The notes: generated from the sequence alone by a model not told the origin. A stretch of DNA of 64,000 nucleotides from Chloroflexota bacterium (GCA_047516685.1 JAKZUJ010000108.1:14787-78786), one strand, 5' to 3'; positions 1,717 to 18,098 are shown, numbered from the stretch's first letter. Numbers and translations: made by a program.

Positions 1717-2577
1717 GTGCCTGTCGCGGATAGACTCGGGTTACCGTCCACGCGATGTCACGAAGACAGCCGGCATGCACCCTCCCCCACGCTTCAGTCC
1801 CGCCCGCGGCAGGCGCCTGCCGCCGAGCTCGGTCGACTGAACGCCTGGCGGTTCTTGCGGCATCTGCGGACGCTGCGCGGCCTGCTCTTCGGGCTGCTGG
1901 GGGTGCTGGCGCTGGCGGTGATTGGCCTCCTGCTCGTGCTCGTCACGACGGCGCCAGCCGGGTCGCCGGCGTCGCAAGGCCGGGCACGCTCGCCGGCTCC
2001 ATTGCCTGGGGACACGTCGAACGTCTTGAGCGAGGCCGCGGTGCCCGACGTTGAGGCGCCGAGTAGACGGCCGGTCGTGCTCCTGCCGCCGCGGCCTCAA
2101 CCGCCTCGACTTCGGGCGCTGGAGCTATCGCCGACCGACGATGTGAGTGACGCGGCCCTGCTGGAGTTTCTGCGCGAGGTGGATATCTTGCTCACCGCGC
2201 TTGACCCATCCACGAGCTACGTCGGGCTGCTGGCGACGCAGGCGCTTCGCGGTGAGACGTCACGGCTGAGGGTCATCGTGGAGAGCGGGGGCACGGCTAG
2301 CGCGTTGGCGGACATCCAGCCGGCGCGCAGGACATCGCAGCTTCCCGCGGACGCGCAGACGCTGGCGCTGCTGCTGCGTTCGATCCTGGTTACCGGTGCG
2401 TCCGGACAGCAAAGTCTGCTCACCAGTGTCACGGGACAGCCGGCGGTTTCCGAGCGCATTCAGGAAGTTATGGAGGCGCGCGCGCTCGTCCGCTTTATCG
2501 AAGTGCATGAGGCCGTGGAATTTGCTGCCGAATTGCGCAACAGCGTCGTGCACGCCGCGGCGGAGACTCGCGGCTAG
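1717..2577 (+). CDS. hypothetical single-pass membrane protein (N-in TM helix, Pro-rich linker, ~230-aa extracytoplasmic domain)
   Basis: ORF-track 1552..2577. The 5' part would overlap the divergent GNAT gene, so a downstream start (GTG 1717, or CTG/TTG near 1837-1855) is more likely. Shows a positive-inside segment RFLRHLRTLRG followed by the hydrophobic helix LLFGLLGVLALAVIGLLLVLV. No recognisable family. Confidence 0.4.
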   Translation: MPVADRLGLPSTRCHEDSRHAPSPTLQSRPRQAPAAELGRLNAWRFLRHLRTLRGLLFGLLGVLALAVIGLLLVLVTTAPAGSPASQGRARSPAPLPGDTSNVLSEAAVPDVEAPSRRPVVLLPPRPQPPRLRALELSPTDDVSDAALLEFLREVDILLTALDPSTSYVGLLATQALRGETSRLRVIVESGGTASALADIQPARRTSQLPADAQTLALLLRSILVTGASGQQSLLTSVTGQPAVSERIQEVMEARALVRFIEVHEAVEFAAELRNSVVHAAAETRG

Positions 2578-4370
2578 CCGGCGGCCGGCTCGACTTTCGG
2601 CAGCTGCCAGGCTTCGATTGCCCGTTCGGCGTTGGCTGTCAGCAGCAGGTTGGCGCCAGGCGCGGCGGCAACGGTCCGTATGTCGGAGGAGGTAACCAAC
2701 TGTCCCAGGACGGTTCCGTCCGCGCGAATCACGCGCAAGGTGCGTTCCGAGGCCTGGGCGATCACGTAGTCGTTGGTTACCAGCAGGCGTTCGACCGCCA
2801 GGCCAGGCAGATGCCAGATCTCGGTTCCATTCACGCTGAAGGCGCCCAGCCCGTTTGGACCCGCCAGGATGATCGTGTCGGCTTGGGGCATGCGCGCCGC
2901 CGCCGTGGATGGAAAGCGGATCTGCCACACGAGATCGCCGCTGGCGCTGTCGAAGACCTGCGAGCTTTGATCGGTGACAGCGAGTGTGTGCTCGCCCGAC
3001 TGCGTGAACAGCACGTTGTGCAGCTCGCCGTCGACGCCGAAGCGCTGGTCGAGGTTTCCGTTCGGCGTGATCAGGACGATCTGGTTCTCACCCCGGCTGG
3101 ACGAGGCGACGGCCACCGTGCCGGTGACCGGATTGAGCGCCACGTCGGCGGCGCTGATGTACGACTGCGTGGGACCCCACAGCTGGCCATCGTGGTTGAA
3201 GGCGAAGACGTGCCCCACACCGCTGGCATTGGTTGAGCGGGCGACGAGCCAGTCTCCGTGCGGCGCAAAGACCACGTCTTCGAGCAGCTGATTGTCGGGA
3301 CGTGTCGGCGACCGCCAGATCGGCTGGCCCGTGGCATCGAGCAACAGAAGATCGAAGCCGTGCGCCGCCGTGAGTTCGCCGTCGGCTGACACAACGGCGT
3401 GCGACAGAGGAATCCTCAGGTCGCGGCTCCAGCGTGGGGCGCCGTCGGCGCCAAATGCCGCGATCTCACCGTTCCGGGCAATTGCGATCACGAGGTTTCC
3501 GTCGGCCGATGACGCGAGCCCGGTAATGTCGAAGTCGGTCCGCGTCAGCCAGGCCCGCTCCGTCCAGCGGCCAGCAGCCGGCTCGCGGACATTGGTTGTG
3601 GTGAATGCCAGGTCGATGACGTCCTCTATTCGGGTTCCAAAGCCGAGGAGCTGCCATTCGAGGGCCGCGGCGTCGGCCTCCGCGGCCGTTGGATAGCGCC
3701 CGGCTTCCACCCAGCGGCGGAAGACTCGGGACATGCGGAGCGACGGAAGCTGACGTCCGATCCTCGCCCGGGCTTCCGTCTCATCGGCGAAGGGACCGAC
3801 GAGGACCGCGAGCTTGGGTACCCGTAGAACGTCGATCTGAAATTCGCCAAGGTCGTCGATGGCCTGTCGAAGCCAGGTTCTGGTACGTCCCGGCCCGACG
3901 GCTTCAGCGAATGCAGCGACTGCGGTATGAGCTTGCTTCTGCAGGGTGATGACGTGCACCAGGCGTTCGGGCTCTTCAAGATTCTCGTAGGCGCGGAGCG
4001 TGGGGATGACTTCGACCAGTGCGTCGACGGCCGTGGTGAGATGCGCGTGCGCGGTGGATGCCGTAGCCGGTGGGCTGAGCGGGATGAGCGCCTGACCGAG
4101 CGCGCCGATAGCTTCGAACTGGGCCATGCTGGAGGCCGCAAACTGATCAGAAGTCTGGAAGCCTGTGCCCAGCTCGCGGATGTTGCCTTCCAGCGTCCGC
4201 AGTTCGTGGAGCGCGCTGGTCGCAACCGTGAGCGCGGGCTCCCAGTAGGGACGTGCCGCAAACTCACTGGAGGGCGGCGTCGGGTCGCCGCAGGCGGCCG
4301 CCGCGACGGCGGCGGCTGACGCCGTCAGGAAGGTGCGCCGCGGCAGGCCGCCGCGCCGCCGTTCGCGCAC
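2574..4370 (-). CDS. Tat-signal lipoprotein with SPOR-like domain and 8-bladed PQQ/BamB-like beta-propeller
   Basis: ORF-track 2574..4457. GTG at 4370 avoids overlap with miaB. Twin-arginine motif RRTFLTASAAAVAAAACGD with lipobox Cys. Segment LAVLVGPFADETEARARIGRQLPSLRMSRVFRRWVEAGRYPTAAEADAAALEWQLLGF resembles SPOR peptidoglycan-binding domains. It is followed by ~8 repeats of the DG.LxW / NG..xW type. Confidence 0.6.
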   Translation of the reverse strand: MRERRRGGLPRRTFLTASAAAVAAAACGDPTPPSSEFAARPYWEPALTVATSALHELRTLEGNIRELGTGFQTSDQFAASSMAQFEAIGALGQALIPLSPPATASTAHAHLTTAVDALVEVIPTLRAYENLEEPERLVHVITLQKQAHTAVAAFAEAVGPGRTRTWLRQAIDDLGEFQIDVLRVPKLAVLVGPFADETEARARIGRQLPSLRMSRVFRRWVEAGRYPTAAEADAAALEWQLLGFGTRIEDVIDLAFTTTNVREPAAGRWTERAWLTRTDFDITGLASSADGNLVIAIARNGEIAAFGADGAPRWSRDLRIPLSHAVVSADGELTAAHGFDLLLLDATGQPIWRSPTRPDNQLLEDVVFAPHGDWLVARSTNASGVGHVFAFNHDGQLWGPTQSYISAADVALNPVTGTVAVASSSRGENQIVLITPNGNLDQRFGVDGELHNVLFTQSGEHTLAVTDQSSQVFDSASGDLVWQIRFPSTAAARMPQADTIILAGPNGLGAFSVNGTEIWHLPGLAVERLLVTNDYVIAQASERTLRVIRADGTVLGQLVTSSDIRTVAAAPGANLLLTANAERAIEAWQLPKVEPAAG

Positions 4371-4377
4371 GGGCGCG

Positions 4378-5718
4378 TCAGCCTGCGACGTCGGCTGCCG
4401 CCGCGCCCCGGAGCGACCACGGCGTGGCTGCCGTGATCTTGACCGCATGCGTACCACCGGGCGCCAGGTATGGCTGGTCAGGGGTGAAGACCAGCTTGTT
4501 GGTTCTGGTTCGGCCGCGCCAGCGCGGCTCGTGCTGCTCGCCCTTGCCAGGCGTGAGCTCCTCGAACAGCACCTCCGGCTCAGCGCCCAGGTAGGTGCGG
4601 TTGATCGCCTCGGCGATCAGCGTCTGCTCGCGCTCGATCCGGTGCAGGCGGCGCAGCTTCTCCGCCCGCGGCACGTCGTCAACCCACTCGGCGGCCACCG
4701 TGCCTTGTCGCGGCGAGAAGGCCGCGACGTGCACCTGATCGAAGCGCAGGTCGCGCACGAGCCGCAGCGACTCCAGGAAGTGCTGCTCTTGCTCACCGCA
4801 GAATCCCACGATGATGTCGGTGGTCAGCGCCACGCCGGGCACGGTGGCGCGCAGCATGGCGATGGTCTCGCGGTAGAAGTCGGCGCCGTAACCGCGCGCC
4901 ATGCGTTTGAGGACCCAGTCGTCACCGGACTGGACGGGCAGATTGATTTCTTCGCAGACGCTGGGGATGTCGCGCATCGCTTCGGCCAGCGCGCGGGTCA
5001 TGAAGCGTGGATGGGCCGTCGTGAAGCGAATCCGGTCGATACCGTCCACGGCGTCGACGCGTTCGAGTACATCCGGCAGGCTGGTTCTGTCGAGGTCGAA
5101 CCCGTAGGCGTTCACGATCTGCCCGAGCAAGACGATCTCGCGCGCGCCCTCGTCACGAAAACGCCGAACTTCGTCGAGAATTTCGTCCATCGGCCGACTG
5201 CGCTGGGCGCCGCGCCGAAACGGCACGATGCAGTAGGTGCAGCGCTTGTCGCATCCGTAAATCACGTTGACGAAGCGGGACACTGCTCCGGCGCCTGGCG
5301 CCGGCTGCGCCTCGACGTCCTCGTATCCGGGCGCGTCAGCCGGCGCCGAACGCGCCAGCCTTGCCAGGAGGGGCGCGGCGTTCAGCGTGTCGAACAGCAC
5401 GTCCACGGGATCGAGGTGCGGCGCGAGTTCGTCCTCGTCCGCGTGAACGGTGCAGCCGGTCAAGCCCACCACGAGATGCGGTTTCGTCTTCTTCAGGCCC
5501 TTGAGCATGCCGAGCATGCCCCAGACCTTGCGGTCGGCGTTGTCTCGAACGGCGCACCCATTGACGACCACGGCGGTGGCATCAGCCAGCGTGTCGGCTG
5601 GCGAATGCCCCGCGTGCTGGAGTTCGCGTTGGATCCGCTCGCCGTCGGCGCGATTCATCTGGCAGCCGATCGTCCAGATGAATACACGGTGCGAGGGAAC
5701 GAGTGTCAGCGGCATCAA
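4378..5718 (-). CDS. miaB: tRNA-2-methylthio-N6-dimethylallyladenosine synthase (radical SAM methylthiotransferase)
   Basis: N-terminal MTTase motif IGCQMN. Radical SAM CxxxCxxC (CDKRCTYC). C-terminal TRAM-like region. 446 aa. Confidence 0.85.
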   Translation of the reverse strand: MMPLTLVPSHRVFIWTIGCQMNRADGERIQRELQHAGHSPADTLADATAVVVNGCAVRDNADRKVWGMLGMLKGLKKTKPHLVVGLTGCTVHADEDELAPHLDPVDVLFDTLNAAPLLARLARSAPADAPGYEDVEAQPAPGAGAVSRFVNVIYGCDKRCTYCIVPFRRGAQRSRPMDEILDEVRRFRDEGAREIVLLGQIVNAYGFDLDRTSLPDVLERVDAVDGIDRIRFTTAHPRFMTRALAEAMRDIPSVCEEINLPVQSGDDWVLKRMARGYGADFYRETIAMLRATVPGVALTTDIIVGFCGEQEQHFLESLRLVRDLRFDQVHVAAFSPRQGTVAAEWVDDVPRAEKLRRLHRIEREQTLIAEAINRTYLGAEPEVLFEELTPGKGEQHEPRWRGRTRTNKLVFTPDQPYLAPGGTHAVKITAATPWSLRGAAAADVAG

Positions 5719-5820: not shown

Positions 5821-6033
5821 TTGCGCTCCCGCTTCGCACTTCTCCGCCGCCCCGCCGTCGTTGCCTTTCTTGTACTGGCCACGGTCTTGACCGTGTTGGT
5901 CTTTCTGGTGTCGGCCGGCCGGGCGCTTGGCGTCCCTCAGTATTTGGGGCTGGTCACGGTGGCCGTCGTCACGGCGGCATTCGCGGTTGGGCTCATGTAC
6001 GCCGGTAGCGGATCCGGCGATTCGGAGGCGTAG
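5821..6033 (+). CDS. putative small two-helix membrane protein (~70 aa), start codon uncertain (TTG)
   Basis: Tail of antisense ORF 4333..6033. Its last 70 codons are strongly hydrophobic (AVVAFLVLATVLTVLVFLV ... LGLVTVAVVTAAFAVGLMYAG). They lie in the miaB/rmlD divergent intergenic region. The stop TAG 6031-6033 is 1 nt from the rmlD GTG at 6035. Confidence 0.25.
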   Translation: MRSRFALLRRPAVVAFLVLATVLTVLVFLVSAGRALGVPQYLGLVTVAVVTAAFAVGLMYAGSGSGDSEA

Positions 6034-6034
6034 C

Positions 6035-6880
6035 GTGGAGCGGTCGACGGTGGTGACAGGCGCCGGTGGCCAGTTGGGGATCGAACTGGCCCGGCGGCTG
6101 GACGAGTCGAGTAGCTTGACGTTGACGCGCTCTCAACTTGACGTAACGAATGCTCCGCTGGTGGAGCGCACGCTGCACGAGATCAGTCCGCGGCTCATTG
6201 TTCACGCGGCTGCCGCTACCAACGTCGACCTTTGCGAGCGGCAACGCGCCGAGGCCTACCGGACGAACGCCGTCGGGACCTGGAATGTGGCGCGCGCGGC
6301 CGCCCGTACCGGCGCCCAAATGGTGTACGTGAGCACCAACTACGTGTTCGACGGTCGGAAGCTCGGTCCGTACCTGGAGTACGACGACCCGGCGCCTTTG
6401 AGCGCCTACGGCTGGACGAAGTTGCACGGGGAGCGGGCCGCGCACCAGGTGCTGGATCGTCTGTATGTGGTTCGCACCAGTTGGCTCTACAGCCGCTGGG
6501 GCCGCAATTTCCTCAGCCGCCTGCTGAATGTCGATTCCGCCGACAGTCCGCTGCGGTACGTGGGTGACCAAGTGGCCAATCCGACCAACGCGGGCGACCT
6601 GGCAGCGGCCATTCTCAGGTTGGCGGAAACCGAGGCCTTTGGCACGCATCATCTCGTCAACGAGGGCGCGACCAGCTGGTACGGCTGGGCCGCGGCCGTG
6701 CTCGCGGCGCTCGGTCGCGATGACGTGGCGCTGGAAGAGATCAGCGCGGCCGAGTTTCCGCGCGCCGCGGCGGTCCCAGCCAATGCCGAACTGGCGAACG
6801 AGATGGCCCGCGCGGTGAATGTGACGTTGCGGCCCTGGGGTGAAGCGCTGTCGGCGCATGTTCGTGAGGTGGCGTCGTAG
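6035..6880 (+). CDS. rmlD: dTDP-4-dehydrorhamnose reductase
   Basis: ORF-track 5927..6880. GTG 6035 gives VERSTVVTGAGGQLG (Rossmann GxxGxxG) at the N-terminus. Rest matches RmlD/RfbD: YVSTNYVFDG, active-site YGWTKLHGE, ANPTNAGDLA. Confidence 0.8.
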   Translation: MERSTVVTGAGGQLGIELARRLDESSSLTLTRSQLDVTNAPLVERTLHEISPRLIVHAAAATNVDLCERQRAEAYRTNAVGTWNVARAAARTGAQMVYVSTNYVFDGRKLGPYLEYDDPAPLSAYGWTKLHGERAAHQVLDRLYVVRTSWLYSRWGRNFLSRLLNVDSADSPLRYVGDQVANPTNAGDLAAAILRLAETEAFGTHHLVNEGATSWYGWAAAVLAALGRDDVALEEISAAEFPRAAAVPANAELANEMARAVNVTLRPWGEALSAHVREVAS

Positions 6881-7846
6881 GTGGACACCGACGGCGAAGC
6901 TTCCCCGCCACGCTGGTCAGTGCTGATTCCCACGTGGAACGGACGGCATCTGCTCGAAGAGGCCCTGGACGGCTTGGATGCCCAGATCTTGCAGGACTTC
7001 GAAGTATTGGTCGTGGACGATGGCTCGGACGATGACACCGTGGTCTGGATGCGGGCCCAGCGGCCCGTTGACCGCCTGATCGAGCAACCGACGCAGTGTG
7101 GGCTGGCCGCCGCATTGAACCGTGGAATCGCGGCCGCGCATGGTCGCTTCATTGCAGTGCTCAACAATGACGCCGTGCCGGAGCCGGGCTGGTTGGGGGC
7201 GCTGGATCGCGCGTTCGCGGCTGCTCCGGACGCCAGTTTTCTGGCCTCGCGAATCCGCCTGTACGACGACCCGTCCCGATTGCACGCCGCCGGGGATACG
7301 TTCGGCCGCAACGGGCTGCCCGGCAATCGTGGCGTCTGGAAGCCCGACGGTCCGCCCTATACCGAGTCGTGTGAAGTATTCGGCGCCTGCGCGGCCGCGG
7401 CGGGCTATCGCCGCGAGCTCTTCGACGACATTGGGGTTTTCGACGAAGACCTGGTGATGTATTGCGAGGACGTGGACCTGGACTGGCGCGCTCAGATGGC
7501 CGGTCATCGCTGCCGCTACGTGCCAGACGCGGTCGTCCGGCATCGACTCAGCGCCACCGCCGGCGGCGAGATCGCCAGTTTTCTCGTGGCGCGTAACCGG
7601 CCGCTGGTGGCCATCATGAATATGCCGGGTTTTCTCTGGCGGCGCGGATGGTGGCGGATTGCCGGGGCGCAGCTTAGACTGGCGGCCGCGGCGCTGCGCG
7701 CGATTCGCGGACGAGCCGCGCGCGCCACGCTGGCGGGCCAGTTAGCGTCGTTAGGACAGCTGCCCCGGGCTTGGAGCAAGCGGTCGCGCCGCCAGCGGTC
7801 ACGCCGCGTGGCAGACGCTTATATCGAAGGTTTGCTCGAGCGTTGA
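6881..7846 (+). CDS. glycosyltransferase family 2 (rhamnosyltransferase-like)
   Basis: WSVLIPTWNGRHLLEEALDGLDAQ ... VVDDGSDDDT ... NNDAVPEPGWL ... CEDVDLDWR. GT-A fold DxD and ED motifs. GTG start immediately after rmlD stop. Confidence 0.75.
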   Translation: MDTDGEASPPRWSVLIPTWNGRHLLEEALDGLDAQILQDFEVLVVDDGSDDDTVVWMRAQRPVDRLIEQPTQCGLAAALNRGIAAAHGRFIAVLNNDAVPEPGWLGALDRAFAAAPDASFLASRIRLYDDPSRLHAAGDTFGRNGLPGNRGVWKPDGPPYTESCEVFGACAAAAGYRRELFDDIGVFDEDLVMYCEDVDLDWRAQMAGHRCRYVPDAVVRHRLSATAGGEIASFLVARNRPLVAIMNMPGFLWRRGWWRIAGAQLRLAAAALRAIRGRAARATLAGQLASLGQLPRAWSKRSRRQRSRRVADAYIEGLLER

Positions 7847-7864
7847 CGCAGGTGGAGGACGACG

Positions 7865-8239
7865 ATGGGCTTTATACGGCGACTCTTCGGCGGCGGTGAC
7901 GGTGGAGCGAAAGAACCGGTCGATACCGCGTGGCACTTTTTCGTCAAGAGCAAATACGCGGACGAGATCATTGATGTCCGCGTGGATCCGAACGCCGACC
8001 TTTCGCCAGAGTTCGACGGCCCTGGGGACGGCACGTCGCACTACACGTCGAACAAGGACATTATCGGTCGCAAGAGCTTTCGAACTATCAATCTGCACCT
8101 CATTTTCAGTTCGAGTCGGGCCTATACCGGCGACTACACCATCGAGGGCGGTGAGCTGGTTGATCAGGCGACCTACGAGGACTGGAAAGCGCGGGAGACA
8201 GCCGCGAGCGCTGGCGACGACACTGGGGACGGGAGCTAG
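7865..8239 (+). CDS. hypothetical protein (124 aa), compositionally atypical (lower GC, rare codons)
   Basis: Strong SD GGAGGA 5 nt upstream of ATG 7865. Codons such as ATA, TTT, AAA and ATT are rare elsewhere in the window. No family recognised (MGFIRRLFGGG ... acidic C-terminus). Confidence 0.5.
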   Translation: MGFIRRLFGGGDGGAKEPVDTAWHFFVKSKYADEIIDVRVDPNADLSPEFDGPGDGTSHYTSNKDIIGRKSFRTINLHLIFSSSRAYTGDYTIEGGELVDQATYEDWKARETAASAGDDTGDGS

Positions 8240-8269
8240 CCCTCACTCGGGTCCGCGGGCGTCAATGTA

Positions 8270-9655
8270 GTGACCACTGCCAGGTTGCCCAGCCGGCGCG
8301 CGGCGCCGATGCTGCTTGCGGCCCTGGCGGTCGCGGCGATAGTTGCCGGCGTATTGGGCGGCGCGCGTCCACCGCCCGCGGCGCTCGCCGGCGGTTTGGC
8401 TGTTCTGGGCGCCGCGCTCGGTCTGATGAGGCCGGCACAGGGCCTGATGGCGGCCCTGGCCGTGGCCCTGCTGGCCCCATTCCTGGTCGTACCGCAGCGG
8501 TTCGGCGTGCAGCCGCCAGTTGTCGACGGCATCGTGGCCGCGACATTTCTGGGAGTCGCCCTGCGCGGAGTCACGGGACGGCGTGGAGAGTTTCCGGGAT
8601 CGGAGTCGACTCCACGCTGGCTCGTGGGTGTGACAGCCGTGGCGGCGGCGCTGCCACTGGCGGCCGGAGCGGCGGCCTTTGCGGCTTCGCACGACGGCCA
8701 GGCGGCTCAGGTTGCGGTCAAGATGTCGCTCTACGGCTTGACGCCGGTCATGGCTGCGCTCATGTGCCCACGGGCATGCTCGCTGCGAGCCGTGGCAGCC
8801 GTTGTCACCGCGGGCGCCGCGCTTCAGGCCCTGGTCGCAATTGTCATTCACCTGTCCGGTCCGGCCGGTATACAGGCGTTGGAGGGACTGGGCACGGCAG
8901 GCTATCCGTCGACCGGCGTCGCGCGATTCCTGCCAGATCAGGTCACTCCGCGCGCGACCGGCTTGCTGGTCGATCCGAACGTGCTGGGCGTCACCCTGGC
9001 GGCCGCTCTGCCGTTTGGGTTGGTGTGGATCGGCGGCAGCGGACGGCGCACGGCGTTGGGTCTGGCCGCCTTGACGCTGATTGGGGTGGCACTGATATTC
9101 ACGATCTCGCGCGCGAGTTGGATTGCGGCGGCCGCCGGTTTGCTCGTATGGCTGGCCCTCGTCCGCCCTCGCCTGGCCGCCGCCGCGGCCGCGGTTCTTG
9201 GCGTCGCAGTGATTGCCGCCCCCATTGAACCGTTCGAAAGGATTCGCCAGGGATTGTTGGCGTCCGACCGCTCGGCAGCCCTGCGGGTGAACGAGTTCCG
9301 CGAAGCGACGCGTGTAATCGGTCGGTTCCCGCTCCTGGGAGTTGGGTATGGGGACGCGCCGCATCCGGACGTCTTCGTCGGGGTGTCCAATGCCTGGCTC
9401 TGGCTGGGTGAACGGGCCGGCGTCGCCGCTGGACTGACACATCTGGTCATGCTGGGCGGCGCGGCGCGGGCCGCCATCACGTCAGCGACCGTCGATCCCG
9501 CGCTGCGGCCGCTGCTCGCGTCGCTGGCGGCGTTCACCACGGCAGGACTGTTCGACCATCACATCGTTAGTTTTCCGCACCTGGTCTACATGGTGGGGGG
9601 GCTGGTTGGGCTAATCGCCGCGCGAGCGATCTACGCGGCGAGGAGCGCCGAATGA
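8270..9655 (+). CDS. O-antigen ligase / Wzy_C-family polytopic membrane protein (candidate ligase, polymerase or O-oligosaccharyltransferase)
   Basis: ~11 predicted TM helices. Wzy_C core GVALIFTISRASWIAAAAGLLVWLAL. Downstream loop carries H ... N.WL...GE.G..G (HPDVFVGVSNAWLWLGERAGVAAGL), as in WaaL/PglL/WsaB-type enzymes. Confidence 0.7.
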   Translation: MTTARLPSRRAAPMLLAALAVAAIVAGVLGGARPPPAALAGGLAVLGAALGLMRPAQGLMAALAVALLAPFLVVPQRFGVQPPVVDGIVAATFLGVALRGVTGRRGEFPGSESTPRWLVGVTAVAAALPLAAGAAAFAASHDGQAAQVAVKMSLYGLTPVMAALMCPRACSLRAVAAVVTAGAALQALVAIVIHLSGPAGIQALEGLGTAGYPSTGVARFLPDQVTPRATGLLVDPNVLGVTLAAALPFGLVWIGGSGRRTALGLAALTLIGVALIFTISRASWIAAAAGLLVWLALVRPRLAAAAAAVLGVAVIAAPIEPFERIRQGLLASDRSAALRVNEFREATRVIGRFPLLGVGYGDAPHPDVFVGVSNAWLWLGERAGVAAGLTHLVMLGGAARAAITSATVDPALRPLLASLAAFTTAGLFDHHIVSFPHLVYMVGGLVGLIAARAIYAARSAE

Positions 9656-10719
9656 AGTCCGTAGTGCTCGACGGGCGCATGCTTCGGCACGACCAAGCGG
9701 GGATCGGGCGCTACATCTGGCGGCTACAGGAGGCCCTGGCGGCGCTTCCCGAGCCGGGCATCGACCTCGAGTTGCTCGTGGATCGACGCGGCGGGCTTCC
9801 GGGCACGCCAGCGCTGCGCGCGCGCCGGACGATTGTGCCCGCCCGCAATCGGCTGGAGCGTCTGCTGCTGCCGCGTGCCCTCGCCGGCGTTGACCTGGCG
9901 CACTTCCCCGACCACGGGATTCCGCCGGGCGTTACTCGGCCGTCAATTGTGACCGTGCACGACATTTCGTTCCTGACGCACCCCGCCACCCATTCAGCAT
10001 CCAGCCGGCGGCACTATGGAGACACGATTCGAACCGTGCGGCGTGCACGGGGGGTTATCGTCCCGTCCCAGCACATGCGCGCGGCGCTGGTGGATCGCGA
10101 CCTTGTGGAGGCGGACCGGGTGACGGTTGTTCCGTATGCGTCCGGGTTGGCGGCGGCGGCGAATGGTTGCCAGCGCAGCGAATGGCCTGCGCCGTTCGCC
10201 CTGATGGTTGGAACCATCCAGCCGCGTAAGAACATCGAGCTGGCGGCGCGCGCGTTTGGGTTGTCCCGTTTCGCTCGGGAGGGAACTCTGCTGATTGTGG
10301 GGTTGCTTGGTTTTCGTGGGCCGGAGATCATTCGCGCCATCCGGTCCGATACCGGCTCCCGCAAGGCCCGGTTTCTTGGTCGGGTAGCCGACAATACGTT
10401 GGCGCGCCTCTTTGAACAGGCGGAGTTCGTGCTCATGCCGGCGCAGGATGAGGGATTCGGTCTGCCCGCAATAGAAGCCATGATGTTTGGGACGCCGGTT
10501 ATCGCGGCTCGGGCGGGCACCCTGCCGGAAGTGGTTGGAGATGACGCGCTGCTGGTCGACGCGAATGATGTCGAGGGGCTAACGGCGGCTATCGACCGGC
10601 TGGCCGACGACGCTGGTCTGCGAGCCGACTTGGGAACTCGCGGTCGCGCGCGGGCCGGAGGCTTCAGCTGGGAGCAAACGGCTCGAGGCACGCTGGCGGT
10701 GTACGAGGCCTGCGCGTGA
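9652..10719 (+). CDS. glycosyltransferase family 1 (GT4-type, GT-B fold)
   Basis: C-terminal EGFGLPAIEAMMFGTPVIAARAGTLPEVVGD motif (EX7E-type). Start overlaps upstream stop by 4 nt. Confidence 0.75.
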   Translation: MKSVVLDGRMLRHDQAGIGRYIWRLQEALAALPEPGIDLELLVDRRGGLPGTPALRARRTIVPARNRLERLLLPRALAGVDLAHFPDHGIPPGVTRPSIVTVHDISFLTHPATHSASSRRHYGDTIRTVRRARGVIVPSQHMRAALVDRDLVEADRVTVVPYASGLAAAANGCQRSEWPAPFALMVGTIQPRKNIELAARAFGLSRFAREGTLLIVGLLGFRGPEIIRAIRSDTGSRKARFLGRVADNTLARLFEQAEFVLMPAQDEGFGLPAIEAMMFGTPVIAARAGTLPEVVGDDALLVDANDVEGLTAAIDRLADDAGLRADLGTRGRARAGGFSWEQTARGTLAVYEACA

Positions 10720-11930
10720 ACATTCTGGCAATCACGTCAACGCCGCTCTGGCCGCCGACCCACGGCGCGGCACTGCGAAACAGCCTGCTGCTCGAGGCCC
10801 TGGCCTCCGAGCACACCGTCGATCTGGTCACGCTCGACGGGCCCGGTGCGCCGTCCGTTGCCGCGCCATCGTCGATCCGTCGAGTCGTCCAGGTTCGCGC
10901 CGCGCCACCCACGGTCTGGCGGCGGCTGCGGGGTGGATGGCGCGGCGGTGTGCCGGACCTGCTCATCCGACACGGATCCCGCAGCCTGCGCGGCCGCGTG
11001 CAAATGCTCCTGAGCGGCGGTGACTATCACGCCGTCCATGTGGCGCAGGCCCAACTGGCGCCCCTGATTCGCGACGTGCGGACCGCTTCGTCACGTCACA
11101 CCAGACGGCCGCGGGTGATCTACGACGCCCACAACGTTGAGTGGATGCTGCAGGCGGCGCTGGCAGGCGCCAGCGCCGGCCCGCGCGCCCTGTGGGCGCG
11201 CCGACAGGCCAGACTGTTGCGGCAGGTGGAATCGTGGGTGGCTCGGACCGCCGACCAGGTAGTGGCCGCGTCGCCCGACGACCGTGACGGTCTGGTGGCT
11301 CTCGGCGCCCGCACGGCCGTGTACATCCCGCATCCGGTACGGGTTGGGGCGGAGCGTCCGGGCGGCGAGGGTCGGGCCAAACAGCCACGCGTGCTCTTTG
11401 CCGCGAACTTTGCCTACCGCCCGAACATCATGGCGGCGGAGTGGCTGTTCGGACAGGTGTGGCCGTCCGTCGCGCGCAACGTGCCAGCCGCGGAACTGCG
11501 AGTGGTCGGTCATCGGTCCGACGACCTGCGCTCGATCATGCCTGCGCGGTCGACGCTGGGCGGAGTCGTGGACGACATTGATGGCGAGTATCGGCGGGCC
11601 TGGCTGGCTCTCTCACCCACGGCGATAGCCGCGGGAGCGCCTTATAAGGTCTTGTCGGCCCTGGCGGCGGGTCGTCCCGTGGTCGCCCGTGCGCAGGGGT
11701 ACGTAGGCCTGCCGGCCCACACCGGAATTGGTGTCATGACGCCCTCGCGGAGCGACGAATTCGTGGGCGCCGTGACGACCCTGTTGACGGACCCAGCGGC
11801 CTACGAACGGGCGGCCGCCGGTGGATTCGACTACGTCAAGGCCAAGCACGACGCAGCCGCCGTTGGTCGGCAGCTCCTCGACGTTTATGCGCGCGTTCAG
11901 GCGCCGGAAGCCACGGGAGCGGCGGTGTGA
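10716..11930 (+). CDS. glycosyltransferase family 1 (GT4-type)
   Basis: N-terminal MNILAITSTPLWPPTHGAALRN (GT4 N-domain). C-terminal GT-B region with AAGAPYKVLSALAAGRPVV. Overlaps neighbours by 4 nt on both sides. Confidence 0.7.
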   Translation: MNILAITSTPLWPPTHGAALRNSLLLEALASEHTVDLVTLDGPGAPSVAAPSSIRRVVQVRAAPPTVWRRLRGGWRGGVPDLLIRHGSRSLRGRVQMLLSGGDYHAVHVAQAQLAPLIRDVRTASSRHTRRPRVIYDAHNVEWMLQAALAGASAGPRALWARRQARLLRQVESWVARTADQVVAASPDDRDGLVALGARTAVYIPHPVRVGAERPGGEGRAKQPRVLFAANFAYRPNIMAAEWLFGQVWPSVARNVPAAELRVVGHRSDDLRSIMPARSTLGGVVDDIDGEYRRAWLALSPTAIAAGAPYKVLSALAAGRPVVARAQGYVGLPAHTGIGVMTPSRSDEFVGAVTTLLTDPAAYERAAAGGFDYVKAKHDAAAVGRQLLDVYARVQAPEATGAAV

Positions 11931-12859
11931 CCGTTGCCATCTGCGCCACCGTCAAGAACGAAGCCGCCGCCGCCTCGGCATTGGTGGCAAGTCTCCGCGA
12001 GCAGGACCTGGCCGCGGACGAGATTGTGATCGTTGACGGCGGATCGACCGACGCCACCTTCGAGGCGTTGCGCGCGGCAGCGCAGGGGGATCCGCGGTTC
12101 AGCCTGCGGCGCGCACCGGGCGCCAATATCGCCAGCGGCCGCAACCTGGCGATTGGCGCAACGCAGTCACCCTTGATCGCAGTGACGGATGCCGGCCTGC
12201 GGCGCTCGGCGCAGTGGCTCCGGGCACTCGTTGCGGCTGTGCAGGATGAACCGCTCGCCGCGGGGTCCTATGGCTACATTCTGGCTGCGCCGGAAACGAC
12301 GTTCGAGGCGGCGCTGGGCGCCGTGGCGCTGCCGCTGGCGCCTCAGATCGACTCCGCACGCTATCCACCCAGCAGCGGGTCGGCGCTGTTTCGACGCGAG
12401 TGGTTGGACCGCGTCGGGGGCTATCCCGAGTGGCTCGCGCATGGCGAAGACCTGTGGCTGGACCGCGAAATCTGGCGCAACGGCGGCTGGTTCCGCCACG
12501 CCCCAGGCGCCGATGTGGGCATTCGCCCGCGACCCTCGGTCCTGGCCTTCTTCCGCCAGTACTTCCTATACGCTGCCGGCGATGGCCATGCCGGCATGCT
12601 CGTGCGGCGCCATGCGCTGCGCTACGGGGCCTACGCGCTGGGTCTTGCGCTGATGCTGCATCGGTCGCCAGCGGCGTGGGCATTGCTGCTTGCGCTGACA
12701 GGCGCTTACCTGGGCCGCTCCCTGCGCCGTACGCCGGCAATGATCCGACGCACGGCCACCGCCAACGCTCTCGGCGCCGCCGCGCTGACGCCGGCTCTGC
12801 GGATCATTGGCGACTTGGCGAAGATGAGCGGATTCGTCGCCGGGCTGGCCCGTCGGTGA
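11927..12859 (+). CDS. glycosyltransferase family 2 with C-terminal membrane segment
   Basis: VAICATVKNEAAA ... IVIVDGGSTDAT ... ASGRNLAI ... VTDAG (GT2 DxD). Hydrophobic C-terminal third. Confidence 0.7.
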   Translation: MTVAICATVKNEAAAASALVASLREQDLAADEIVIVDGGSTDATFEALRAAAQGDPRFSLRRAPGANIASGRNLAIGATQSPLIAVTDAGLRRSAQWLRALVAAVQDEPLAAGSYGYILAAPETTFEAALGAVALPLAPQIDSARYPPSSGSALFRREWLDRVGGYPEWLAHGEDLWLDREIWRNGGWFRHAPGADVGIRPRPSVLAFFRQYFLYAAGDGHAGMLVRRHALRYGAYALGLALMLHRSPAAWALLLALTGAYLGRSLRRTPAMIRRTATANALGAAALTPALRIIGDLAKMSGFVAGLARR

Positions 12860-13761
12860 CGGCGAAGATGCCCGACGCTCCTGACGTCGCTGTTGTCATC
12901 ACCACCTTCAACGTGCGCGCCCTGCTGGAGCGCTGCCTGGCCAGTCTGTCAGCGGCCCGCGGCTCGCAAACGCTGGAGATCGTTGTCGTGGACAACGGCA
13001 TGGGTGACGACACGTGGCCGATGTTGCTAGCCCGCGACGACGTGCGGGCGATTCGCGGCTCGCCGGAGCTTGGCTATGGAGGCGCCAACAACATCGGCGC
13101 CGCCGCGACCCGTGCGCCCCTGATTCTGTTCCTTAACCCGGACACGGAGCCGGAGCCGGAATCCATCGCCGTGCTGGCCGACCAGCTACGGCGGCGTGCT
13201 GACGTCGGCGCCGCCGGTCCTCGATTGGCGCTATCCGACGGGAGCCTGGACCCCGCCGCGCGTCGGAACTTCCCGCGTCCGGCCAACGCTCTGCATCGTC
13301 TTCTCGGTGCGCCGCGCGTTCTCCGTCCGGCCGCCGCCAGGCCCTACAACCCCGGCGAGCCGTCGTACGCGGCCGTAAGCGAGATTGACGCCGTATCGGG
13401 CGCGTGTTTGATGATTCGCCGCCCGGCCTTTGAGGGCGTGGGTGGATTTGACCCGACGTTCTTCATGTACGGCGACGATCTGGACCTGCAGCGGCGACTG
13501 GCCGACGCCGGCTGGAAGGTCCTGTATGTGCCCGCGGCACGCGTGTGGCACCGCAAGCGGCAATCGTCCCGCCAGCGCCCGCTCCGTACCCGGTTCGAGT
13601 TTTACCGGTCGATGTGGCGCTACTACGACAAGCACCATGTTGGCGACCCATGGCCATTGCGCGCCGTCGTGAAGAGCGGGGTGCTTGTACTCGGTTGTTG
13701 CAGCGTGCTACGCGCACTTGCGGCCTGGCGACGAGGGGGAACGGTAGGCACGACATGCTGA
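12856..13761 (+). CDS. glycosyltransferase family 2
   Basis: ORF-track 12400..13761 is an upstream extension. GTG 12856 (GTGA overlap) or ATG 12868 gives MPDAPDVAVVITTFN ... VVDNGMGDDT ... YGGANNIG ... GACLMIRR ... DDLDLQRR, a classical GT2_2 signature. Confidence 0.7.
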   Translation: MTAKMPDAPDVAVVITTFNVRALLERCLASLSAARGSQTLEIVVVDNGMGDDTWPMLLARDDVRAIRGSPELGYGGANNIGAAATRAPLILFLNPDTEPEPESIAVLADQLRRRADVGAAGPRLALSDGSLDPAARRNFPRPANALHRLLGAPRVLRPAAARPYNPGEPSYAAVSEIDAVSGACLMIRRPAFEGVGGFDPTFFMYGDDLDLQRRLADAGWKVLYVPAARVWHRKRQSSRQRPLRTRFEFYRSMWRYYDKHHVGDPWPLRAVVKSGVLVLGCCSVLRALAAWRRGGTVGTTC

Positions 13762-15167
13762 CCTGGGCGCAGCGCAACTGGGGCGGCCTGGTCTCCACGT
13801 TTTCACTCGTGGCCGACGTGGTAGCTGTCGGTCTGGCTCTGATTGCGGCCTACTACGTGCGCTATCGCTTTGGCTGGTTCGAGGGAACGCCGCCTAACCG
13901 TTTCCTGTTTCTGGCTCCCGTCACTGTCGCGTGTGCCGCCGCGACCGTGGTCGGCGGTCTGTCACTGGGCATGTATTCGCGCTTTCGGACGGCCGGACCG
14001 GTGGATCGGGTGGCGCGCAGCGCGGGCATGGTCACGATAGGTTCGCTACTCGCGGTCGCGGCCACGTTTTTCGTCTTCACCGACCGCCTGGAACCTGTGC
14101 GAAACGTCATGCCAATGGCATGGCTGCTCGGCATAGTTTTCGTAGCGTTGGGGCGGTCGCTGCTGGCCGCACTCCTTCGGATCCTGGCGCGGCGTGGCGT
14201 CGGCGTCCAACGAGTGCTCGTGATCGGCGCCGGGGCTGAAGGACGCGAGGTCGCCGGTCGCCTGCTCGGGGACCCAAGCCGCCGATATCAACTCATCGGC
14301 TTCCTGGACGACTTTGAGTCTCGCGTATCGGTCGGCGAACGCGAGGCGCCGGTACTGGGCACATCCGCCGCGCTACCGGACCTGCTCTCCGAGCACGAAA
14401 TCGACAAGGTCGTCGTGGCTATTCCGTCGCTCTCACACGACGACCTGCTCGCCATCCTGGCCGATGTTGAAGCGTCCTATGCCGATGTGTGGCTGTTGCC
14501 CGATCTCTTTCAGCTCATGGTGTCTCCGGTTGTTGAAGGCGGGGTCCGCGGGCTTCCGCTGATTGCGGTCAACGAAGTGCGCCTGCGGGGCCTCAGCCGC
14601 TTCACCAAGCGCACGCTGGACATGGTGATGGCCTCATTGGTGCTCGTTGTGGCCTCGGCGCCGATGCTACTTGTCGCCCTCATCATCAAGTTAGACTCCC
14701 GAGGACCCGCCTTTTACGTGCAGACACGCGTTGGACGCGACGGTCGACCGTTTCCAATCGTGAAGTTTCGAACGATGGTCAGCGGCGCCGATGAGTACGG
14801 GCAGACGTGGACCGTGGCCAACGATCCTCGCCGGACTCGCGTCGGACGTTTCCTGCGACGCTACTGGATTGATGAATTGCCCCAATTCCTGAACGTCATT
14901 CGCGGCGACATGAGCCTGGTTGGCCCACGCCCGGAGCAGCCGGACTATGTGGACCGTTTTCGAGGCGAATTCTCCCGCTACATGGTTCGCCACCGCGAGC
15001 GCGCGGGCTTGACCGGCTGGGCGCAGGTCAACGGCATGCGCGGCGACTCGTCGATTGAAGAGCGCACCCGTTACGACTTGTACTACGTGGAAAACTGGTC
15101 ACTGCTCTTCGATTTGCGGATTCTGTTGCGAACGCTGCTGACGGTGATGCGTGGCGATGCGAGCTAG
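13755..15167 (+). CDS. undecaprenyl-phosphate hexose-1-phosphate transferase (WbaP/WsaP-type priming sugar transferase)
   Basis: ORF-track 13545..15167. ATG 13755 (ATGCTGA overlap with upstream stop). Five N-terminal TM helices. C-terminal bacterial sugar transferase domain: RGPAFYVQTRVGRDGRPFPIVKFRTM ... DELPQFLNVIRGDMSLVGPRPE ... ENWSLLFDLRIL. Confidence 0.8.
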   Translation: MLTWAQRNWGGLVSTFSLVADVVAVGLALIAAYYVRYRFGWFEGTPPNRFLFLAPVTVACAAATVVGGLSLGMYSRFRTAGPVDRVARSAGMVTIGSLLAVAATFFVFTDRLEPVRNVMPMAWLLGIVFVALGRSLLAALLRILARRGVGVQRVLVIGAGAEGREVAGRLLGDPSRRYQLIGFLDDFESRVSVGEREAPVLGTSAALPDLLSEHEIDKVVVAIPSLSHDDLLAILADVEASYADVWLLPDLFQLMVSPVVEGGVRGLPLIAVNEVRLRGLSRFTKRTLDMVMASLVLVVASAPMLLVALIIKLDSRGPAFYVQTRVGRDGRPFPIVKFRTMVSGADEYGQTWTVANDPRRTRVGRFLRRYWIDELPQFLNVIRGDMSLVGPRPEQPDYVDRFRGEFSRYMVRHRERAGLTGWAQVNGMRGDSSIEERTRYDLYYVENWSLLFDLRILLRTLLTVMRGDAS

Positions 15168-17952
15168 CGGCCGAGCCTCCCCGGTTTCCCGTCGGTTTCT
15201 CCTGGGCGTCATTGCCGCCGCCACGGCGACCACGGCCTGCGAAATCGGCGGCTTCGGGGGAGATGCCTCGCCAACAGCCGATCCCAGCGCGACAAGCACT
15301 CCGCCACCCTATCCAGCTCCCGTTTCGCAACCGCTACCGCCCCCGGTTCGCCTGCCCGCGTTCATGTCGGACTTTGCCGGCACGGGAGATATTGGGGACA
15401 GCGGCGACGGCGGACCGGCGGTTGCGGCACAGTTTCGCAGTGTCGGCGGGGTCGCGGTTGCTTCCGACGGGGTGATCTATCTGTCCGATCCCAGCGCCAG
15501 TCGTATTCGCCGGATTCGGGCGGGCGGGGTGATCGAGGCACTGGCAGGCACCGGCACGCGCGGTTACGGCGGCGACGGCGGTTATGCCCTCGCCGCGGAC
15601 TTCACCGACCCGACGCGATTGCTGGTCGATCAGGCCGGCACGCTATTCGTCGCCGAGCTGGACCGCGTGCGACGGATCGATGCAGCGGGGCTGGTGTCCA
15701 CGATTCTGGGCGACGGTCATGCAGGCCTGGAAGGCGACGGCGGGCCGGCGGCCTTTGCCAGAACGGCTGGCAACGAAGGCATGGCTGTTGACGGTGAAGG
15801 AAACCTGTTCATCGCCGAACGCGCGGCCAATCGGGTGCGCCGTATCGATACGCACGGCAACGTGGTTACCGTGGTTGGCACCGGCGCCCCGGGGAGCGAC
15901 GGCGACGGCGGACCAGCGCTTTCGGCAACGCTCAACCAGCCGGTCGATGTGGACGTTGACGGTCTGGGCAATCTCCTCATTGCTGAACTGGCCGGCAATC
16001 GGATTCGTCGAGTGTCCACCAGCGGCGTGATCGACACTATTGCCGGTGTTGGCCTCCCAGGCGGGGCCGGTGACGGCGGACCGGCGACCGCGGCTGAACT
16101 CCACGGTCCCCAAAGCGTGGTGGTGGATGCGAGCGGCGCCATATTCGTCGCCGACTGGAACAACCGGCGCATTCGCTGCATTCACCCCGATGGAACGATC
16201 CAGACGGTGGCCGGGCTCGTGGGCGGTCGCGTGGAGTCCGGCGGGCCGGCGCTGGAGTCGCGGCTTACGCTACCGCTCGACATAACGCCAACTCTTGACG
16301 GCAGCTTGCTAGTCGTGGAGCAGGGCGCGCGACGGGTGCGGGCGCTCGTGCCGGCGCCGGGTTCCGAATCGCCACAGCCGGGGACGGACGCCGGGCCCGC
16401 CGGATCCGGGGACACCCAGCAAGCCAACGCTCAGACAGCCCCGTCAGCCTATGTGGCGCCCGCCCCCGCCCTGCCAAGCGGCGCACCGCTTGCCGGCGAC
16501 CTGGTGGCCGAGGTCTTTGCCGGCACGGGTGAATCCGGCAGCGCCGCCGATGGCGAGTTTCGACTGAGCGCCTTGTTTGCGTCGCCGCGCGGGATAGCCG
16601 TCGACAGTGTTGGTCGAATCCTGATCGCCGATACCGGCAACCACCGGATTAGCCGGATCGAACCGGACGGCTCGGTCCGGATCGTGGCTGGAACCGGGGA
16701 ACCGGGTAACGCCGGGGACGGCCAGGCCGCTCGGGCGGCCCAGCTCAACCGTCCATCCGCGCTGGCCGTGGATGCGCAGGGGTCAATCTACGTCGCCGAC
16801 TCGGGCAATTTCCGAATTCGCAAAATCGACCCGGATGGCGTCATCACGACGTTTGCCGGAAGCTCTCAGCCAGGCGTTGCCGGCGACGGCGGGCCCGCGC
16901 GCGACGCCCAGTTCACCGAACCAAGCGGCCTGGCCCTGGGTTCTGACGGCTCATTGTTTGTAGTGGATGCGCCGGTTCATCGTGTGCGCGTGATTCGACC
17001 TGATGGCGTTGTCCGTGCTTTTGCGGGCAACGGAGTTGATGGGCTGGGCGGCGACGGCGGGCCGGCGGCAGAGGCCACGCTCGGTTTCCCACAGCGAGTC
17101 GCGGTCAACGCGGACGGATCGGTGCTCGTCACCCAACTCCAGGCGGGCGTGGTTCGTCGCATCGGTCCCGACGGGATCATTGAAAGCCTGGCCGGGTCCG
17201 GCCGAGCCGAGGCCCCGACCGAGGGTCCAGCCCGCGAGGTGTCGCTTGACGCCCCGATCGGCGTCGCGGTGGACACGGTTGGCGCTGTCTATGTGGCAGC
17301 CAGTGGCAGCGGCCAGATCACCCGAGTCGACCCGGGCGGGCACGCCCAGGTGATTGCCGGCAACCCTCTGGGCCAGGGCCAACCCGGGGGGCCGGCTCGT
17401 GATATCCCACTGTTCACGTCGATTGACATTGCGTTGGGGCGGGACGGAACGGCCTACCTGCTGGAGGCCCGCGGGCTCATCTGGCGGATCAGTTCCACGA
17501 CTCCAGGCGTCGCGCCCGGAGCGACCCAGCCGCCAGACGGGCTCACGCCGACGCCAACGTTAACCCCAGCCCTGGACGTTGGAGCTAACGAATCGGCCGG
17601 GGCCGCCAGCGTGGTACTGACCCTGCAGCTTGGGCCGGGGCAGGAACCGATCCAGCCAACGCTCACGTTCCACCCCGGCGAACGTGTGAACGTGTCGATT
17701 GAATTCGTGGATGTGGCGCAGGGATCGCGCCTCGGAATCCGCTGGTTTGCGGGCGACACGCTGCAGGGAACGTTCCTGACCGATCCGCAACCGGCGTACA
17801 ACAGGGCGCGATTCGGCTTCTGGTTTGGTCTGCCGCCCACGGCCGCCCCCGGTCCCTGGCGGGTTGAGATTTTGGTCGGCTCCCGGGCAATTGCTTCCGT
17901 GGACTTCGTGGTGACTGCCGGCGAGGTCCGCGTGACGCCGCCTTCGGCATAG
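15151..17952 (+). CDS. NHL-repeat double beta-propeller lipoprotein (933 aa)
   Basis: Tat-like signal SRRFLLGVIAAATATTAC with lipobox. About 12 NHL repeats (GDGGPA ... P.G.A.D..G.lyvAD..N.RIRRI) in two groups, separated by a Pro/Gln-rich linker. C-terminal ~150 aa beta-rich domain. GTG 15151 / ATG 15157. Confidence 0.7.
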   Translation: MAMRASGRASPVSRRFLLGVIAAATATTACEIGGFGGDASPTADPSATSTPPPYPAPVSQPLPPPVRLPAFMSDFAGTGDIGDSGDGGPAVAAQFRSVGGVAVASDGVIYLSDPSASRIRRIRAGGVIEALAGTGTRGYGGDGGYALAADFTDPTRLLVDQAGTLFVAELDRVRRIDAAGLVSTILGDGHAGLEGDGGPAAFARTAGNEGMAVDGEGNLFIAERAANRVRRIDTHGNVVTVVGTGAPGSDGDGGPALSATLNQPVDVDVDGLGNLLIAELAGNRIRRVSTSGVIDTIAGVGLPGGAGDGGPATAAELHGPQSVVVDASGAIFVADWNNRRIRCIHPDGTIQTVAGLVGGRVESGGPALESRLTLPLDITPTLDGSLLVVEQGARRVRALVPAPGSESPQPGTDAGPAGSGDTQQANAQTAPSAYVAPAPALPSGAPLAGDLVAEVFAGTGESGSAADGEFRLSALFASPRGIAVDSVGRILIADTGNHRISRIEPDGSVRIVAGTGEPGNAGDGQAARAAQLNRPSALAVDAQGSIYVADSGNFRIRKIDPDGVITTFAGSSQPGVAGDGGPARDAQFTEPSGLALGSDGSLFVVDAPVHRVRVIRPDGVVRAFAGNGVDGLGGDGGPAAEATLGFPQRVAVNADGSVLVTQLQAGVVRRIGPDGIIESLAGSGRAEAPTEGPAREVSLDAPIGVAVDTVGAVYVAASGSGQITRVDPGGHAQVIAGNPLGQGQPGGPARDIPLFTSIDIALGRDGTAYLLEARGLIWRISSTTPGVAPGATQPPDGLTPTPTLTPALDVGANESAGAASVVLTLQLGPGQEPIQPTLTFHPGERVNVSIEFVDVAQGSRLGIRWFAGDTLQGTFLTDPQPAYNRARFGFWFGLPPTAAPGPWRVEILVGSRAIASVDFVVTAGEVRVTPPSA

Positions 17953-18098
17953 CCGAGTGGAGATCCGATGTCGCTGCGACAAGGGCTTTGGCCTTGCACT
18001 GGTTGGGTCGCCGATATTCCGGGTATGCACCGGATTGTCCTTGGTGACCTGTCTCCCACCCGTAGAATGGCGCTGATCGCCAAAAACGCATAGGCCGC

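Follow-up and report, generated by a model that had tools for sequence, protein, structure and literature searches.

Proteins of the NHL-repeat propeller family (PF01436), among them TRIM71, Brat and Thin, the PknD sensor, the teneurins and a bacterial teneurin-like protein, share a common motif, blades of ~56 amino acids (aa) and rings of six four-stranded blades. A second plan, with two propellers and a C-terminal beta-sandwich, is found in extracytoplasmic proteins of diderm Bacteroidota that are tied to type IX secretion (T9SS) or two-component signalling, namely PorZ of the T9SS and the BT4663/BT4673 periplasmic sensor domains. PorZ, which has this three-domain plan, binds anionic lipopolysaccharide (A-LPS) and hands it to a transferase (PMC8545088). 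In the S-layer glycosylation (slg) systems of Geobacillus stearothermophilus (sgsE/wsa) and Paenibacillus alvei (spaA/wsf), a surface-protein gene lies beside a cluster of WbaP, rml, glycosyltransferase (GT) and Wzy_C genes (PMC2943079). Here, we describe an NHL lipoprotein gene (15157..17952, + strand) from a Chloroflexota bacterium, contained in a 64,000-nucleotide stretch of DNA (GCA_047516685.1 JAKZUJ010000108.1:14787-78786), hereafter the window, from whose first letter positions are counted. The gene combines two tandem NHL propellers with a C-terminal beta-sandwich and stands at the end of a glycan operon (5927..15167, +). The domain architecture, a conserved twin-arginine translocation (Tat) signal with an invariant Cys, and the operon-end position are established; the favoured reading, to which we give a probability of about 40% from sequence, structural models and analogy, is that Tat exports the product as a lipoprotein, which then binds or handles the glycan of the operon on the outer side of the membrane.

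The product genuinely belongs to the NHL-repeat propeller family. Pfam assigns NHL at 6e-39 (130.6 bits, cut-off 20) and TEN_NHL, the Teneurin NHL domain, at 2e-57 (195.3 bits, cut-off 27.1), and an AlphaFold2 model built on a 32-sequence ortholog alignment has a mean predicted local distance difference test (pLDDT) score of 84.9 over the whole protein. In this model, propeller 1 (aa 67-399, 15355..16353, +; pLDDT ~90-97), to which the Pfam NHL and TEN_NHL matches apply, and propeller 2 (aa 448-780, 16498..17496, +; pLDDT ~85-95) are each a closed ring of six four-stranded blades, 24 strands apiece, with the N-terminal strand closing the ring in both. Both propellers lie mostly above pLDDT 90. 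An earlier note on the window, made from the sequence alone, had proposed two six-bladed NHL propellers, and the predicted fold bears it out. Foldseek comparison with single NHL domains (TRIM71, Thin and the designed Pizza6) gives template-modelling (TM) scores of 0.80-0.87; further matches (E 7e-31 to 7e-21) are to teneurins, the bacterial teneurin-like protein and, in the BT4663 heparin sensor, the periplasmic domain. By sequence, the known NHL proteins of the PDB match at E 1e-77 to 1e-14 (bacterial teneurin-like protein 1.4e-77, TRIM71 7e-34, PknD 1e-14), the best of these matches falling in propeller 2.

Relative to those proteins, the arrangement here differs in having two propellers on one chain, a Tat signal with lipobox at the N-terminus, an unnamed beta-sandwich at the C-terminus and a gene inside a glycan biosynthesis operon, and Pfam finds no RING/B-box, kinase, YD-shell or toxin parts. 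No kinase domain being among the Pfam matches, the kinase-sensor option raised in the earlier note does not apply. Membership among bacterial teneurin-like or YD-shell toxins was likewise considered and rejected: there is no RHS, YD-shell or toxin match in Pfam, and the similarity to 9ifo is confined to its NHL part (chain residues 1065-1255).

The folded parts are joined by two disordered linkers. The inter-propeller linker (aa 400-447, 16354..16497, +; pLDDT <50 at aa 403-430) is rich in Pro, Ala, Gln, Ser and Thr, has no invariant positions and varies in length by ~25 aa among orthologs. The second linker (aa 781-812, 17497..17592, +; pLDDT <50 at aa 784-804) is rich in Thr, Pro and Ala and also varies in sequence and length. 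With the N-terminal segment, the model therefore contains three disordered segments (aa 1-46, 403-430 and 784-804). Among orthologs, 25-31% of positions in the folded domains are invariant (31% in propeller 1), against ~0% in the linkers.

At the sequence level, the blades correspond to 12 units of 46-57 aa (about 56 aa, a 168-nucleotide period). These fall into two groups of six at aa 74-400 and aa 455-780, in the numbering of a 933-aa product, separated by a Pro/Ala/Gln/Ser/Thr-rich linker of 48-54 aa, much as the earlier note had described the two groups and their Pro/Gln-rich linker. The 18-nucleotide motif GGYGACGGCGGRCCNGCG, which encodes GDGGPA, occurs six times in the window, each time within the NHL gene, where 0.01 occurrences are expected. 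The repetition is real and far beyond chance. The unit had been described as recurring about 12 times together with its DNA motif; the count of 12 and the motif stand, with canonical GDGGPA present in six of the units only.

The C-terminal domain (aa 813-919, 17593..17913, +) is an eight-stranded beta-sandwich in the AlphaFold2 model, in agreement with the earlier note, and reaches pLDDT 95.5 when residues 815-919 are modelled alone. It belongs to an unnamed domain family, and neither it nor the N-terminal tether or the linker has a meaningful Pfam match even at E up to 10. Foldseek ranks the carbohydrate-binding domain (CBD) of Wzt, from the O-antigen ABC transporter, first (PDB 6o14, 7k2t, 8dky and 8dne; E 2e-5, TM ~0.6), making it the closest solved fold. 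The Wzt CBD is cytoplasmic and fused to an ATPase, whereas the domain described here is predicted to be extracytoplasmic and follows the propellers, with 15-19% identity to Wzt. A profile of the C-terminal domain finds 162 cluster representatives among 1.84 billion (E<1e-3); many of these have the domain in tandem arrays or beside PD40 propellers, and no named family is present in any of them. Such relatives hold as many as 11 tandem copies, in proteins of up to 2756 aa, and the family has only weak, sub-threshold matches to DUF3859, DUF6941 and PapC_N.

Over the whole model, Foldseek matches the BT4663 heparin-sensor double propeller with its immunoglobulin (Ig)-like domain at E 7e-21. The plan of two propellers and a sandwich is thus shared with PorZ and BT4663; their propellers are seven-bladed and non-NHL, whereas those here are six-bladed NHL rings, and the global TM is 0.23-0.29. 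Membership of the PorZ/BT4663 family was rejected on the six-fold NHL blades and this low TM, leaving a functional analogy. By that analogy, we infer that PorZ may serve as a functional model for the NHL protein.

The N-terminus, MRASGRASPVSRRFLLGVIAAATATTAC, carries a predicted signal peptide (aa 1-28, 15157..15240, +). This contains a twin-arginine motif, S11-R-R-F-L-L16 (15187-15204), reading S-R-R-F-L-L-G and then the weakly hydrophobic GVIAAATATTA, and a lipobox-like T-T-A-C that ends at Cys28 (codon 15238-15240). It agrees in sequence with the Tat pattern (S/T)-R-R-x-F-L-K followed by a weakly hydrophobic h-region. The lipobox was judged against the pattern [LVI][ASTVI][GAS]-C at the end of the h-region: small residues occupy positions -1 and -2, and the Cys is invariant in 31/31 orthologs. 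The S/T-R-R motif, the h-region and a Cys after small residues are kept in 16/16 orthologous loci, as is consistent with the SRRFLLG motif and lipobox Cys of the earlier note, and Cys28 is the sole invariant Cys of the protein in the 32-sequence alignment. Taken in aggregate, the pattern fits a predicted Tat-exported lipoprotein. The signal segment is disordered in the model, and because only 18 disordered residues separate the predicted lipid anchor from the modelled part, propeller 1 would be kept near the membrane.

The gene is real and conserved in a group of uncultured Chloroflexota, as judged from comparative sequence data. A single open reading frame (ORF) of 933 codons spans 15151..17952 (+), the extent given in the earlier note, but the start had to be corrected. 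GTG 15151 is the mechanical longest-ORF start only; a Met aligned with ATG 15157 opens the conserved N-terminus in 16/16 orthologous loci, and the frame is open just a few codons further 5'. ATG 15157 is thus most likely the true start and the product most likely 931 aa long. This 931-aa protein (P0001) occurs with 100% identity in two independent metagenome assemblies, from both of which the window DNA differs by five synonymous changes only. At least 14 species-level Chloroflexota metagenome-assembled genomes (MAGs) hold a full-length ortholog (905-931 aa, 53-84% identity), and several of these are complete chromosomes of 3-3.8 Mb. The complete chromosomes are OZ240251, OZ244802, OZ242271, OZ253587 and OY282448. 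The gene is single-copy and in a core-genome position, and its product is 55-84% identical across loci where the neighbouring transferase is 61-90% identical, the same evolutionary rate as its enzyme neighbours. Databases label the protein and its relatives 'hypothetical' or, in entries from the Joint Genome Institute (JGI), 'sugar lactone lactonase YvrE'.

Gene order bears out the tie to the glycan locus upstream, which the earlier note had also suggested. In 16/16 Chloroflexota loci with enough upstream flank, down to 55% identity, the order is RmlD-GT2-Wzy_C-GT4-GT4-GT2-GT2-phosphoglycosyltransferase and then the NHL gene. The NHL start codon overlaps the phosphoglycosyltransferase stop by 11 nucleotides (ATGCGAGCTAG, 15157..15167, +). 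The same overlap is present in all five loci with the end of the transferase gene on record (L001, L003, L004, L006 and, after correction of a mis-called start, L005), and this suggests translational coupling. The downstream boundary is variable: hrcA may be present or absent, and L006 has an inserted 809-aa gene on the other strand. Together, the conserved upstream order and overlap and the variable downstream side indicate that the NHL gene behaves as the last cistron of the glycan operon.

Besides RmlD and five glycosyltransferases, the operon encodes a WcaJ/WbaP-type initiating transferase and a single Wzy_C-family membrane protein. If the favoured reading holds, these enzymes would assemble a rhamnose-containing glycan on a polyprenol carrier, while the NHL protein, exported folded via the Tat pathway and acylated at Cys28, would be tethered to the outer face of the cytoplasmic membrane. 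In the mature protein, the lipid-modified Cys28 would be followed by a short tether and propeller 1; a flexible linker would lead on to propeller 2, and another to the beta-sandwich. It would act as a non-catalytic glycan-binding partner that holds, presents or retains the operon's glycan, and would probably bind it through the Wzt-CBD-like domain at the C-terminus and the conserved top face of each propeller. Such a function would resemble that of the two-propeller-plus-beta-sandwich glycan binders PorZ and the BT4663 sensor domain. This proposal is made because the end domain is Wzt-CBD-like, because the two-propeller-plus-sandwich plan is common to PorZ and BT4663, and because co-polymerase, wall-ligase and exporter genes are absent from the locus; the NHL protein may stand in for the missing co-polymerase or anchoring functions. 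The earlier note had regarded the protein as the most obvious candidate for the cell-surface component that the locus serves. The operon link and the predicted export and anchor signals agree with that view.

Several observations weigh against a glycan-handling role. The Wzt-CBD likeness is moderate (15-19% identity, TM ~0.6), and generic Ig-like domains, including those of AlkC, macroglobulins, GH2/GH3 and UNC119, score nearly as high. The likeness to BT4663 and PorZ is architectural only (7-bladed non-NHL propellers, global TM 0.23-0.29), and NHL propellers are mostly known for binding protein or RNA or for enzyme activity, and not as lectins. At the anchor, position -3 of the lipobox is Thr, Ala or Ser in most orthologs rather than Leu, Val or Ile, and the lipobox sequence fits only the permissive PROSITE-type pattern. 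Synteny of the whole region, with MiaB upstream and GrpE-DnaJ-PrmA-HIT-rpoBC downstream, is also kept in the clade; adjacency alone is therefore weak evidence, and the argument rests on the overlap. In other lineages, three distant multi-NHL proteins have no glycan biosynthesis genes next to them. A point in favour of the role comes from an Acidimicrobiaceae MAG, in which two Tat-signal double-NHL proteins lie within a GT2/GT4 glycan cluster (L021); here propellers are linked to a glycan locus independently, in an unrelated setting. The association is thus specific to this family and to the one Acidimicrobiaceae locus. That locus (features at 9761-11977, +; 12442-14802, +; and 14807-17275, -) also encodes an 822-aa Wzx-type flippase (Polysacc_synt_3) with a C-terminal Vgb-lyase-like propeller (47.3 bits, just under the Pfam cut-off).

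A more specific version of the glycan-handling role, which we consider unlikely, would give Wzy_C-type glycan assembly in monoderm Chloroflexota an extracytoplasmic accessory component not recognised before, with the NHL protein as a membrane-tethered glycan chaperone. It would capture the polyprenol-linked chain and either present it to the Wzy_C enzyme or retain the product, replacing the co-polymerase and wall-ligase functions missing from the locus. Were this true, the flippase-propeller fusion of the Acidimicrobiaceae locus would be a second, independent case of the same principle. Four features set this Chloroflexota family apart: the tandem NHL propellers, the Tat signal with lipobox, the unnamed C-terminal domain and the fixed position as the closing gene of a glycan operon. 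Together they still combine parts that are already known. Almost nothing is known of the cell envelope in uncultured Chloroflexota, including lineages that apparently live in sponges, and a glycan operon that is conserved in the core genome and has a single dedicated surface lipoprotein is a concrete candidate for how these cells make or display a coat of surface sugars. Should the protein bind or carry that glycan, it would offer a handle for labelling and pull-downs and a case of an NHL propeller at work in glycan biology; otherwise, it would be an ordinary NHL-repeat surface protein.

The main alternative, a rather unlikely one that is not exclusive of binding, is that the NHL protein is the acceptor of the glycan: a surface glycoprotein that receives the operon product by O-glycosylation of its Ser/Thr/Pro-rich linkers, with the Wzy_C-family protein acting as O-oligosaccharyltransferase (O-OTase) as in Gram-positive slg clusters. 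The locus matches such clusters in its WbaP-type initiating enzyme, rml gene, several glycosyltransferases and single Wzy_C-domain protein. In Geobacillus, the S-layer structural gene adjoins the slg cluster, and the predicted O-OTases WsaB and WsfB carry Wzy_C (PMC2943079). The locus also has neither a co-polymerase nor an LCP-type ligase, which a wall polymer would need, and the three disordered, low-complexity Ser/Thr/Pro/Ala segments would be natural glycosylation sites. Yet the linkers are unconserved in sequence and length, with no recurring Ser/Thr or Tyr site evident, and the Wzy_C protein is not assignable to polymerase, ligase or O-OTase. S-layer genes are normally transcribed alone and at high level, whereas the NHL gene is coupled start to stop with an enzyme gene (PMC2943079). 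Unlike the slg systems, 5927-15167 holds no Wzm/Wzt transporter, and the protein has no S-layer homology (SLH) or other wall-binding domain in Pfam; it is predicted to be lipid-anchored rather than to self-assemble into a lattice, it is operon-coupled rather than monocistronic, and its glycosylation is hypothetical. A catalytic role on the glycan, as an extracytoplasmic lyase, hydrolase or trimming enzyme, is improbable. Other six-bladed propellers are enzymes (SMP-30/gluconolactonase, Vgb lyase and PAL), and many polysaccharide operons encode an extracytoplasmic degrading enzyme. In keeping with such a role, Pfam and NCBIfam give weak matches to SGL (1.9e-18), Vgb_lyase (3.4e-18) and ScyF/ScyE, relatives bear the JGI lactonase name, and the B-C loops of propeller 1 hold an invariant acidic/amide ring (D111, E167, E221, E277, D333-W334-N335 and E388-Q389). 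These family matches are, however, blade-level only. One SGL stretch passes alone, covering 36 of 246 profile positions (aa 209-244, profile 187-222), and the SGL score comes from repeated blade-level similarity; with no whole-SGL match, assignment to SMP-30, gluconolactonase or LRE-like 'YvrE' was rejected. Vgb_lyase and ScyF/ScyE likewise score through partial stretches (2 and 6, respectively), the latter far below cut-off, the ortholog alignment has no invariant His cluster of the metal-binding kind found in PAL and Vgb, and the closest solved relatives (teneurin, TRIM71 and PknD) are binding modules. Judged by its profile matches, the protein lies outside the SMP-30/lactonase family, and the lactonase name is unsupported.

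Only a little less improbable than catalysis is a role as a 'eukaryotic-like' adhesin of a sponge symbiont that binds host or matrix molecules, the position after the glycan operon then reflecting shared surface expression only. The best PDB relatives are protein-binding NHL domains, and MAG names such as RHO2_bin and COS2_bin may point to sponge hosts. NHL repeats are also listed among the eukaryotic-like domains reported to be enriched in sponge symbionts (PMC5524777). This explanation does not account for the coupling to the transferase gene, whose conserved 11-nucleotide overlap with the NHL gene argues for a functional operon link, and it sits poorly with the single-copy, core-genome position and the evolutionary rate shared with the enzyme neighbours; with only 18 disordered residues from the anchor, propeller 1 would also lie near the membrane. 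Very nearly negligible is the remaining idea, that the repeats are a contingency or length-variation device or that the gene is an artefact of assembly, its repeats collapsed or chimeric. The common 18-nucleotide core motif among the twelve repeats is the point in its favour. The earlier note had described long, near-identical repeats that could support recombinational length variation, and had named mis-assembly as a concern. Instead, any two blades share 27-57% of their residues (mean 38%) and 52-68% of their nucleotides (mean 60%), and the propellers as wholes agree at 38% of protein and 58% of DNA positions; the longest exact DNA repeat is 20 nucleotides. Tandem Repeats Finder detects no 168-nucleotide or other long-period array, only short chance repeats. 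All 31 orthologs (53-84% identity) keep 12 blades, and length differences are confined to the linkers. As the repeats are diverged and blade number is constant, repeat-driven length variation is not expected: by these comparisons the repeats are old and will not drive it. The identical protein in two independent assemblies excludes mis-assembly, in agreement with the full-length orthologs on complete chromosomes. The idea is thus refuted to the extent that sequence data permit, and concerns over repeat instability and mis-assembly can be dropped.

The upstream operon comprises nine genes in the window, assigned from Pfam and NCBIfam, all on the same strand as the NHL gene and abutting or overlapping. 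These are RmlD (5927-6880), a GT2 (6881-7846), a conserved 124-aa ORF (7865-8239), the Wzy_C-family membrane protein (8270-9655), two GT4 enzymes (9652-10719 and 10716-11930), two further GT2 enzymes (11927-12859 and about 12856-13761) and the WcaJ/WbaP-type polyprenyl-phosphate glycosylphosphotransferase (about 13755-15167). The 124-aa ORF has no Pfam match; it is found at the same position with 56-89% identity in 13 orthologous loci and is absent from L005 and L006. Conserved in place in this way, it is probably a genuine small protein that belongs to the glycan operon. In L001, from one of the two assemblies with the identical protein, the second GT4 seems truncated (6713-6812), but the interruption is a run of N, a scaffold gap and not a deletion. 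Within 5927-15167, Pfam and NCBIfam recognise no flippase (Wzx), ABC exporter (Wzm/Wzt), co-polymerase or LCP-type ligase, so these functions must be encoded elsewhere or carried out by unassigned proteins. The Wzy_C protein has no informative sequence match in the PDB and only a weak IctB match in NCBIfam, which does not distinguish polymerase, ligase and O-OTase.

An Rfam search of the window found no RNA family. Promoter and terminator sites between 5500 and 18300 are no more numerous than in shuffled sequence, and no terminator is evident 3' of the NHL gene. Downstream, the more distant orthologous loci have hrcA between the NHL gene and grpE (L003 12869-13945, L004 12901-13917 and L006 16469-17536). 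It is missing from the window (17953-18098) and from close relatives, which have a gap of ~100-150 nucleotides before grpE; no obvious CIRCE-like inverted repeat was seen in this gap. Upstream of MiaB, a 627-aa ORF on the opposite strand (2574-4457, -) matches the PQQ_2/BamB-like beta-propeller (3.7e-10) and represents a second, unrelated propeller protein near the locus.

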